From assembly GCF_054482595.1 (NCBI RefSeq), contig NZ_CM137008.1: DNA of 64,000 nt. One strand, given 5' to 3'. Positions within the stretch are counted from its first letter, which is position 1; every line of letters begins with the position of its first letter. Positions 4,403 through 40,227 of this stretch are shown piece by piece. The notes beneath the pieces are model-generated. The model saw only the letters and a list, made by a program, of their open reading frames with translations, searched no databases and had not been told where the DNA came from. A program made the position numbers and the translations under genes.

Positions 4403-4488
4403 TGTAGGCAGGATAAGGCGTTTACGCCGCATCCGGCATTTGAGCAGGATGCCTGATGCGACGCTGATAGCGTCTTATCAGGCCTACA
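4403..4488. repeat. REP/BIME element pair
   Basis: Convergent GCCGGATGCGGCGTAAACGCCTTATCC / GCCTGATAAGACG...CATCAGGC palindromic units between cpxA and yiiM. Confidence 0.8.
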
Positions 4489-13276: not shown

Positions 13277-13600
13277 GCCGGATGCGGCGCGAGCGCCTTA
13301 TCCGGCCTACAGGTCGGCAACAGTTGTAGGCCTGATAAGACGCGACAGCGTCGCATCAGGCATTGATTGCCGGATACGGCACGAGTGCCTTATCCGGCCT
13401 ACAGGTCGGCAATAGTTGTAGGCCTGATAAGACGCGACAGCGTCGCATCAGGCATTGATTGCCGGATGCGGCACGAGCGCCTTATCCGGCCTACAGGTCG
13501 GCAATAGTTGTAGGCCTGATAAGACGCGACAGCGTCGCATCAGGCATTGATTGCCGGATGCGGCACGAGCGCCTTATCCGGCCTACGGGTCGTGCATCCG
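13277..13600. repeat. Tandem BIME array: about 3.5 copies of a 92-bp unit, each holding a convergent REP pair
   Basis: Unit starts (GCCGGAT(G/A)CGGC...) at 13277, 13369, 13461 and 13553; near-identical copies, few substitutions. Confidence 0.9.
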
Positions 13601-37731: not shown

Positions 37732-37747
37732 GATGAGGATAAAAGGA

Positions 37748-38989
37748 ATGAAATGGTTTAACACCCTAAGCCACAACCGTTGGCTGGAACAGGAAACCGA
37801 CCGCATCTTTGATTTTGGTAAAAATTCAGTAGTGCCGACTGGTTTTGGCTGGTTAGGCAATAAAGGGCAAATCAAAGAAGAGATGGGCACCCATCTGTGG
37901 ATCACCGCTCGTATGTTACACGTTTATTCCGTTGCTGCGGCGATGGGTCGACCTGGCGCTTACTCGTTGGTTGATCACGGTATCAAAGCCATGAACGGCG
38001 CACTGCGTGATAAAAAATATGGCGGCTGGTATGCCTGCGTGAATGACGAGGGCGTGGTGGATGCCTCCAAACAGGGCTATCAACACTTCTTTGCTCTGCT
38101 GGGTGCCGCCAGCGCCGTCACAACGGGTCACCCGGAAGCGCGCAAGCTGCTCGATTACACCATTGAAATTATCGAGAAATATTTCTGGAGCGAAGAAGAG
38201 CAGATGTGCCTGGAATCCTGGGACGAAGCCTTCAGCAAAACCGAAGAGTACCGCGGCGGCAATGCCAATATGCACGCGGTGGAAGCTTTCTTGATTGTTT
38301 ATGACGTCACTCACGACAAAAAATGGCTGGATCGCGCGATTCGCGTGGCTTCCGTGATTATCCACGACGTCGCCAGAAATAATCATTATCGCGTTAACGA
38401 ACACTTCGATACCCAGTGGAATCCGCTGCCGGATTACAACAAAGATAACCCGGCGCATCGCTTCCGCGCGTTCGGAGGTACACCAGGCCACTGGATCGAA
38501 TGGGGCCGTTTAATGCTGCACATCCATGCTGCCCTGGAAGCCCGTTGCGAACAACCACCAGCATGGCTGCTAGAAGATGCCAAAGGTCTGTTTAACGCCA
38601 CCGTGCGCGATGCCTGGGCACCCGATGGCGCGGACGGGATTGTTTATACCGTTGACTGGGAAGGAAAACCGGTGGTCCGCGAACGTGTACGTTGGCCTAT
38701 CGTCGAAGCAATGGGTACGGCCTACGCGCTCTACACCGTCACTGGCGATCGCCAGTATGAAACCTGGTATCAAACATGGTGGGAGTACTGCATTAAGTAC
38801 CTGATGGACTATGAAAATGGTTCCTGGTGGCAGGAGCTGGATGCGGACAATAAGGTCACCACCAAAGTCTGGGACGGCAAACAGGATATTTATCACCTGC
38901 TGCATTGCCTGGTGATCCCGCGTATCCCGTTAGCGCCCGGCATGGCTCCAGCGGTTGCAGCGGGTCTGCTGGATATTAATGCGAAATAA
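37748..38989 (+). CDS. yihS: Sulfoquinovose isomerase (AGE family)
   Basis: 413 aa from [24 protein letters not shown]... Confidence 0.9.
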
Positions 38990-39003
38990 CTGATCTGAAA
39001 ATA

Positions 39004-39070
39004 GGGTGCGGGTTTTCCCCTCACCCTAACCCTCTCCCCAAAGGGGCGAGGGGACCGTCCGGTGCAGTTT
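39004..39070. repeat. GC-rich imperfect-palindrome intergenic repeat
   Basis: TGCGGGTTTTCCCCTCACCCTAACCCTCTCCCCAAAGGGGCGAGGGGACCGTCCGGTGCA; resembles a short E. coli intergenic repeat family; exact family not verifiable here. Confidence 0.4.
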
Positions 39071-39102
39071 TTGGGTTTGACATCAGCCTCACGGGAGGCT
39101 GT

Positions 39103-40029
39103 ATGTCGTTAATTAAGGTGCCTTGTATGCAAATCACCAATATGCATTGCAGTGGACAGACCGTTTCACTTGCCGCGGGGGATTATCACGCGACCATTGT
39201 GACCGTCGGTGCTGGTCTGGCTGAATTAACCTTTCAGGGTTGTCATTTAGTCATCCCGCACAAACCCGAAGAGATGCCGCTGGCGCATCTGGGTAAAGTG
39301 CTTATTCCGTGGCCGAACCGGATCGCCAACGGCTGTTACCGCTATCAGGGGCAGGAATATCAGTTACCCATTAATGAACATAGTTCAAAAGCCGCTATTC
39401 ACGGGCTGCTTGCCTGGCGAGACTGGCAAATTAGTGAATTAACCGCCACCAGCGTTACCCTGACAGCTTTTCTGCCGCCCAGTTACGGCTATCCGTTTAT
39501 GCTGGCTTCACAAGTTGTTTATTCGCTCAACGCACACACGGGTCTTTCCGTTGAGATCGCAAGCCAGAATATCGGCACTGTCGCAGCGCCTTATGGCGTG
39601 GGTATTCATCCTTATTTAACCTGCAACTTAACATCTGTTGATGAATATCTGTTCCAGCTTCCGGCAAACCAGGTTTATGCCGTTGATGAACACGTAAATC
39701 CGACAACGCTTCACCACGTTGATGAGCTGGATTTAAATTTCACGCAGGCGAAAACAATAGCCGCGACAAAAATCGACCACACCTTTAAAACCGCTAATGA
39801 TCTGTGGGAAATAACCATTACCCATCCACAACAGGCGCTTTCGGTTAGCCTTTGTTGCGATCAACCCTGGGTACAAATTTATAGCGGTGAAAAATTACAG
39901 CGTCAGGGACTGGCAGTTGAACCTATGAGTTGCCCGCCTAACGCCTTTAATTCAGGTATCGACTTATTATTACTGGAACCAGGAAAACCGCACCGCCTGT
40001 TTTTTAACATTTACGGACAGAGAAAATAA
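39103..40029 (+). CDS. yihR: Aldose-1-epimerase family protein (sulfoquinovose mutarotase)
   Basis: 308 aa; GGGAGG RBS 5 nt upstream of ATG. Confidence 0.88.
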   Translation: MSLIKVPCMQITNMHCSGQTVSLAAGDYHATIVTVGAGLAELTFQGCHLVIPHKPEEMPLAHLGKVLIPWPNRIANGCYRYQGQEYQLPINEHSSKAAIHGLLAWRDWQISELTATSVTLTAFLPPSYGYPFMLASQVVYSLNAHTGLSVEIASQNIGTVAAPYGVGIHPYLTCNLTSVDEYLFQLPANQVYAVDEHVNPTTLHHVDELDLNFTQAKTIAATKIDHTFKTANDLWEITITHPQQALSVSLCCDQPWVQIYSGEKLQRQGLAVEPMSCPPNAFNSGIDLLLLEPGKPHRLFFNIYGQRK

Positions 40030-40227
40030 CTTGTATTGATTAGCAGTCAAAATCATTGAAGAACATTTCACTCGCTAAAGGCAACATTATGTATCTTCAA
40101 TTTATTAAGTTAAAAACAGCTCAGCTTCTGTAAAGTTTTTATATATCAGTTTTATGAGAATCATTTTACATAAGCCTGTAATAACAGGAAGGCAACAATC
40201 TCGTTCTCAACTCTATGGAGATTAGTT

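Follow-up and report, generated by a model that had tools for sequence, protein, structure and literature searches.

Lying between yihS and yihR, the GC-rich element is a copy of the dispersed enterobacterial BoxC repeat, also known as the PIT element or the TMECO triplex motif. We assign a probability of roughly 85% to the joint reading that it is a BoxC copy without function at this locus, the most likely consequence of which lies at the DNA level. The element is already known, which the original prediction did not recognize: descriptions of the family go back to 1992, its biophysics dates from 2000 to 2015, and this very copy has been tabulated.

The window analyzed here is a stretch of 64,000 nucleotides from contig NZ_CM137008.1 (NCBI RefSeq assembly GCF_054482595.1), in which the yihS-yihR spacer measures 113 nt and the element is intergenic, within the sulfoquinovose (yih) cassette. 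The original prediction had singled out positions 39004-39070 (67 nt) as a discrete GC-rich element, and such an element is indeed present, with 65.7% G+C compared to 50.9% for the whole window. The locus comprises the following features.

37733..38989, plus strand: yihS (sulfoquinovose isomerase), the upstream gene, from the open reading frame and comparison with NC_000913.3
39002..39016, minus strand: flank on the side of the G-blocks, GAAAACCCGCACCCTA on the minus strand, compare GAACAGGCCCGCAC in other copies
39017..39052, minus strand: core BoxC/PIT/TMECO motif of 36 nt, CCCTCGCCCC-TTT-GGGGAGAGGG-TTA-GGGTGAGGGG, type A, with one stem mismatch
39017..39026, minus strand: second G-block, GGGTGAGGGG, potential reverse-Hoogsteen third strand with 10/10 allowed triads
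39030..39039, minus strand: first G-block, GGGGAGAGGG, purine strand of the hairpin
39043..39052, minus strand: C-block, CCCTCGCCCC, Watson-Crick partner of the first G-block with 9/10 pairs and one G.A mismatch
39053..39086, minus strand: conserved flank on the side of the C-block, GACCGTCC on the plus strand, common to nearly all K-12 copies
39079..39107, plus strand: locus-specific hairpin, GACATCAGCCTC-ACGG-GAGGCTGTATGTC, covering GGAGG and ATG 39103
39103..40029, plus strand: yihR (sulfoquinovose mutarotase / aldose-1-epimerase), the open reading frame as annotated in K-12

On the plus strand, the core consists of C-blocks at 39017-39026 and 39030-39039 and a G-block at 39043-39052, contained in the string CCCCTCACCCTAACCCTCTCCCCAAAGGGGCGAGGGGACC (39017-39056) that the original prediction had quoted. 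The minus strand of 39017-39052 reads as the 36-mer CCCTCGCCCCTTTGGGGAGAGGGTTAGGGTGAGGGG, an exact fit to the published consensus 5'-CCCTCNCCCN3-6GGGNGAGGGN3GGGNGAGGG-3' (Holder et al., NAR 2015, PMC4666352). That paper equates TMECO with the element for which Bergler et al. (1992) had used the name BoxC and Hoyne et al. (2000) and Hoyne & Maher (2002) the name PIT. Written as a regular expression, CCCTCNCCC-N3-6-GGGNGAGGG-N3-GGGNGAGGG, the pattern matches the window once, on the minus strand at 39018-39052; with 24 specified bases, 2.6e-9 occurrences are expected in 64 kb and 1 was observed, far beyond chance, and no shuffle of the window contained a match. Neither the pattern with mismatches nor short-word BLAST revealed further copies in the 64-kb window. 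The 36-mer is identical, letter for letter, to TMECO nos. 7, 11 and 15, of the class 'type A mm' (Table 1, PMC4666352), and its orthologue in K-12 MG1655 is TMECO no. 21, which differs from it by 1 nt. TMECO no. 21 is listed at NC_000913 4,070,452-4,070,487, plus strand (PMC4666352, Table 1, Tables S2 and S8), a position that we reproduced with the regular expression on K-12 DNA, with yihR 49 nt away and yihS (misprinted as 'yhiS' in Table S2) 27 nt away. The sole difference between the window and K-12 spacers is A39023 in the window for T in K-12 on the plus strand, so that compared to TMECO no. 21 the window copy has T, not A, at one third-strand position.

The family assignment extends beyond the core. 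We fetched 13 other K-12 loci by their published coordinates, obtaining 15 further copies, and laid out 16 K-12 copies in register. Nearly all type A K-12 copies, together with the window copy, carry GGAC(G/A)GTC on the 5' side of the C-block and GAA(A/C)A on the 3' side of the last G-block, and these shared flanks account for the classical ~56-bp BoxC unit. Four of the 16 copies examined, those at yihS-yihR, fimH-gntP, gcvP-ygfF and fepB-entC, extend further with a tail, ...GC.C.GAC.GTC preceded by AAAA and (C)TGATGWCAAA. As the window copy has this tail (GGTGCAGTTTTTGGGTTTGACATCAG, in common with the other three according to the in-register layout and the fimH-gntP alignment), it belongs to the long form of about 85 nt, and the full unit with its conserved flanks spans approximately 39002-39086. 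The founding BoxC copy, at ycjD-fabI (envM), aligns with the yihS-yihR copy across both core and flanks. BoxC (Bergler et al. 1992 and Bachellier et al. 1999, both as cited in PMC4666352) is likewise GC-rich, ~56 bp long, intergenic, imperfectly palindromic and dispersed, with 22-32 copies reported in K-12 (PMC2267715); nothing essential differs in the window copy, which represents the longer, ~85-nt sub-form with the extra tail AAAAA...TTTGWCATCAG. The same three-block architecture characterizes PIT/TMECO, which is known to give an intrastrand purine-motif triplex in vitro and displays the same 'mutated / missing' behavior between strains (PMC4666352).

The description of the element as an imperfect palindrome was partly apt: its second and third blocks are complementary, with 9/10 pairs, but the core as a whole is a three-block motif. 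Inverted repeats were detected between 39002-39012 and 39018-39028 and between 39016-39026 and 39044-39054. The first of these reflects TAGGGTGCGGG (39002-39012, plus strand), a locus-specific G-block that pairs with 39018-39028 to form a second hairpin, using the first C-block.

That the element is unlike the REP family proved correct. The REP consensus GCC(G/T)GATGCG(G/A)CG(C/T) (GCCKGATGCGRCGY) has 0 matches in 38990-39102 at up to one mismatch. Elsewhere in the window, 13 REP/BIME consensus matches occur (again with at most one mismatch; 0.3 expected), at 4424-4464, 13277-13566 (a cluster of seven), 19866, 27933, 45911, 55780 and 59242. REP/BIME (PU) sequences share with the element that they are short, GC-rich, structure-forming, intergenic and often polymorphic between strains, and that they are frequently found inside operons or in transcribed 3' regions, but there is no sequence relationship between the two. 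We know of no link between BoxC and REP-associated transposases (RAYTs). ERIC/IRU and other enterobacterial MITE-like repeats are also dispersed, intergenic, transcribed and polymorphic for presence or absence, but differ in length and sequence (ERIC being ~127 bp). An Rfam 15 search of 38500-39600 with permissive thresholds returned three chance-level hits (E-values 1.2-2.5, scores below half of the gathering score).

A genome-wide search for further copies, which the original prediction had proposed, bore out the repetitive nature of the element. An 80-nt query around it matched by BLAST at 96,563 places in 5,425 of the 5,426 complete E. coli genomes; the median genome has 19 such places, and none has more than 35. 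Overall, the family occupies about 20-30 dispersed places in each E. coli genome. All 13 other K-12 loci examined are intergenic, like yihS-yihR. Across the 14 K-12 loci, six copies lie between convergent genes (tauD/hemB, aaeR/tldD, frlR/yhfS, zntA/tusA, yjdP/phnP, fimH/gntP), six between co-directional genes (adk-hemH, ycjD-fabI, gcvP-ygfF, xynR-argF, pstA-pstB, yihS-yihR) and two between divergent genes (fepB/entC, yagA/yagE). Combining the Table 1 positions with the locations that we take oriC and the terminus to have, we find that 13 of 23 K-12 copies have their G-rich strand in the lagging-strand template, and hence no bias. Some copies are associated with mobile DNA: 370 of the 96,563 places are on plasmids, and TMECO nos. 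3 and 4 (K-12 281400-290000) lie inside the annotated cryptic prophage CP4-6, observations that qualify the published claim of no such association. Outside Enterobacteria, the matches listed include the three-block core CCCTC(T/G)CCC...GGGAGAGGG...GGGTGAGGG, in great abundance in Mitsuaria chitosanitabida and also in one MAG each of Candidatus Methylomirabilota and Contendobacter. These listed cores frequently occur as inverted pairs, and their loops (GCTTGC) and flanks are unlike those of enterobacterial BoxC.

Comparison across strains, likewise proposed in the original prediction, showed that the yihS-yihR copy is polymorphic. Among the 5,426 complete genomes, yihS is present in 4,016 and absent from 1,410. 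A junction-specific query recovered the element-bearing junction in 2,247 genomes; 1,666 have an element-free junction, and subtraction leaves about 100 with other alleles, among them a hairpin-only remnant. About 41% of the yihS-carrying genomes are therefore without the element. A higher figure of ~3,500 element-bearing genomes (3,501/3,555) was discarded as a coverage artefact: element-free alleles cover 80-81% of a 513-nt query, and long-form copies elsewhere cover most of the 80-nt query. The genomes that lack yihS agree with the 'short cassette' yihTUVW described in PMC12608037, and in ST131 genomes matches arise only through repeats at other loci. TMECO no. 21 had already been scored in a published survey of 56 strains, as unchanged in 20, 'TM mutated' in 14 and not found in 22 (Table S3, PMC4666352), and TMECO loci vary more between strains than control intergenic sites (PMC4666352).

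The element-bearing allele is very uniform, with one SNP class among the 2,247 genomes. The number of genomes in which yihS is at least 99% identical to that of the window is also 2,247, and this equality ties the element to a single, tight yihS haplotype. The full-element allele is that of the window and K-12; spacers ~75 nt shorter and free of the element are found in O157:H7, AF57 and BEC1-S17; and the divergent strain CS5L has a remnant that lost the third block and left flank and kept the hairpin and the long tail. Outside the indel, element-bearing and element-free spacers are 76-83% identical, compared to 94-96% for the adjacent coding DNA. The genes flanking the element-free alleles diverge by 4-6%, an unusual depth for core-like DNA in E. 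coli. These sequence comparisons suggest that the yih haplotypes are old or introgressed.

Which allele is derived bears on the statement that the element was inserted. The length difference is real, the spacers without the element being ~75 nt shorter in other E. coli; the event behind it may have been a gain or a loss. At yihS-yihR and fimH-gntP, the two loci for which both allele types were compared, we found no terminal inverted repeats with target-site duplication, no target-site duplication of any kind and no clean empty site; ~77-81 nt are replaced by 5-12 unrelated bases. Element-free yihS-yihR alleles keep ACAT(AT)CAG, which matches the conserved end of the long-form tail (in other copies TTTGWCATCAG), and element-free fimH-gntP alleles keep GACAATCCG, similar to GACTGTCCG of the element. 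The fimH-gntP copy, located downstream of fimH, is polymorphic in its own right, with 12 nt (CGACAATCCGAA) in place of ~81 nt in element-free strains, and this 12-nt filler is similar to a piece from the element's interior. We also considered that insertion might prefer GATGWC as its target, and rejected this, given that at fimH-gntP this motif falls inside the element-specific segment.

The retained ACAT(AT)CAG, the retained GACAATCCG and the remnant in CS5L favor deletion over recent insertion, and from this comparison within E. coli we lean towards the view that the element-free alleles would have arisen by loss of the element. Recombination between haplotypes could confound this reading. 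The converse scenario, in which a MITE-like non-autonomous element inserted into a virgin spacer in the ancestor of the K-12-type haplotype and the element-free state is ancestral, would explain the discrete ~75-nt indel and the restriction of the element-bearing junction to one tight yihS haplotype, and would suit a dispersed family with conserved ends and two size classes, the core motif of which reaches high copy number in unrelated bacteria among the matches listed. We nevertheless consider it rather unlikely: it does not account for the missing target-site duplication and the unrelated filler at both loci, the motifs retained in element-free alleles suggest deletion derivatives, the same tail in the divergent CS5L haplotype suggests an old element at this locus, and no transposase association is known (PMC4666352).

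The most plausible consequence of the element concerns DNA structure. On the minus strand, the second G-block fits purine-motif triads (G.G-C, A.A-T, T.A-T) on the first G-block at 10/10 positions, and the window/K-12 SNP at 39023 swaps T.A-T and A.A-T triads, both of which are allowed. Folded as DNA, the G-rich strand yields a hairpin of -8.9 kcal/mol in ViennaRNA, which models the hairpin only and no third strand. CD and NMR show that in vitro the 'type A mm' oligonucleotide forms a hairpin with a reverse-Hoogsteen third strand, a very stable intrastrand triplex melting at 74 +/- 1 C (PMC4666352). Because the published non-triplex control is the 36-mer with four G-to-C changes, we infer that the oligonucleotide characterized in PMC4666352 is exactly this 36-mer. 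The G-rich strand at this locus may form an intrastrand purine-motif triplex. PIT elements stop DNA polymerase in vitro, as summarized in PMC4666352, and DMS footprinting detected no triplex in vivo (PMC4666352).

We propose that the G-rich strand, when single-stranded, would fold and stall polymerases, and that such folding would promote local deletion and sequence turnover. In K-12, this strand is on what we take to be the lagging-strand template, from the presumed positions of oriC and the terminus. Turnover at the DNA level would agree with the existence of three allele classes and with the spacer's excess divergence; as triplex formation in vivo was not seen by DMS footprinting (PMC4666352), we put this mechanism of instability forward as a hypothesis. 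The higher divergence could also result simply from relaxed non-coding constraint between two old haplotypes, and within the element-bearing haplotype, with its one SNP class in 2,247 genomes, the element is not visibly unstable.

The yih genes are on the plus strand, so the C-rich strand is present in the mRNA and the G-rich strand is the template for yih transcription. The stable RNA stem envisaged in the original prediction is supported by folding: for 39002-39054, two adjacent hairpins are predicted at -33.7 kcal/mol (z = -3.9), the first using TAGGGTGCGGG, and the entire spacer RNA folds at -52.6 kcal/mol (z = -3.1). The placement of the element directly upstream of the yihR ribosome-binding site has to be corrected. 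Between the element and ATG 39103 lies the separate hairpin at 39079-39107, the 5' arm of which overlaps the last bases of the BoxC long-form tail and the inner 18 nt of which fold at -11.2 kcal/mol, with GGAGG and ATG 39103 predicted to be sequestered. Furthermore, the conserved yihR start is probably ATG 39127, 24 nt downstream of ATG 39103, the K-12-style annotation probably being mis-set: AAGGTG precedes ATG 39127 by 6 nt, PGAP places the start at its equivalent in all four other alleles fetched, and in other alleles ATG 39103 is out of frame through a 4-nt indel or, in CS5L, absent. The Shine-Dalgarno sequence of neither yihR start falls within the predicted stems of the element.

Element-free alleles have a different 12-bp hairpin at the equivalent place (AATAACGGCATAT...GTATGTCGTTATT; spacer -24.2 kcal/mol), and the occurrence of different hairpins at the same place in both allele classes implies that some stem-loop is kept just upstream of yihR. 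The next spacer, yihR-yihQ (40030-40227, 198 nt), is strongly AT-rich, unlike that of yihS-yihR, and could be the site of an internal promoter for yihQ and downstream genes.

The suggested effect on yihR translation or mRNA processing found no support. The C-rich hairpins might act as a cis-element in the RNA, as a barrier to 3'-exonucleases or a processing determinant comparable to some REP sequences, uncoupling yihUTS from yihR-yihQ-yihP-yihO or modulating yihR translation. The element would be transcribed, being in a co-directional string of genes, its predicted folds are strong, another copy is present in the pst operon in the same orientation, and the six convergent contexts among the 14 K-12 loci are 3' untranslated regions. 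We regard such a role as unlikely, however, since both candidate Shine-Dalgarno sequences are outside the stems, some 41% of yihS-carrying genomes do without the element, both orientations occur in the family, divergent promoter regions such as fepB-entC and yagA-yagE also harbor copies, and in published tests these elements neither acted as terminators nor affected RNA polymerase (PMC4666352). In addition, the stem mismatch is common to most copies, which points to common descent and not to selection for pairing. The two intra-operon K-12 copies, pstA-pstB and yihS-yihR, have identical orientation relative to transcription, but with n = 2 this carries no weight in either direction.

Still less probable, to the point that we attach very little credence to it, is an intrinsic terminator that sets an operon boundary between yihUTS and yihR with the genes downstream. 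The GC hairpin at 39030-39052 is followed, 14 nt on, by TTTTT (39068-39072), but this T-run is not adjacent to the stem, and scanning 38700-39400 on both strands gave 0 terminator-like sites and no promoter-like site. PIT elements showed neither promoter nor terminator activity (Hoyne & Maher 2002, via PMC4666352), and RNA polymerase, reverse transcriptase and conjugation were all unaffected by them, as summarized in PMC4666352. Moreover, in K-12 on sulfoquinovose, yihR, yihQ and yihP are induced along with yihS, yihT and yihU (PMC12608037), and this co-induction of yihR with the cassette indicates that the element does not stop transcription into yihR.

Taken with the rest of the evidence, we infer that the BoxC copy at yihS-yihR serves no dedicated regulatory function and is carried along as a tolerated passenger, in a spacer that is non-essential. 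In the mRNA, its C-rich strand would form one or two strong GC hairpins, which might at most modestly affect 3'-5' decay of the yihUTS portion.

As a discovery, the yihS-yihR element matters little, being real but ordinary. What the present analysis adds are population-scale numbers for this locus, the link to a single yihS haplotype and the correction of the idea that the element abuts the ribosome-binding site. The yihS-yihR and fimH-gntP loci contribute small hints that the 'empty' alleles may be deletion derivatives. Two further possibilities, which we judge to be long shots, would give the locus greater significance: either this copy, like that at pstA-pstB, was co-opted as a determinant of RNA stability or processing that sets the yihUTS : yihR-yihQ-yihP-yihO expression ratio in the K-12-type haplotype, or the element-free alleles are scars of deletions provoked by the triplex. 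If the former were true, the 41% of yihS-carrying strains without the element would run the sulfoquinovose pathway at a different stoichiometry; if the latter, yihS-yihR would be a natural record of BoxC-driven deletion.
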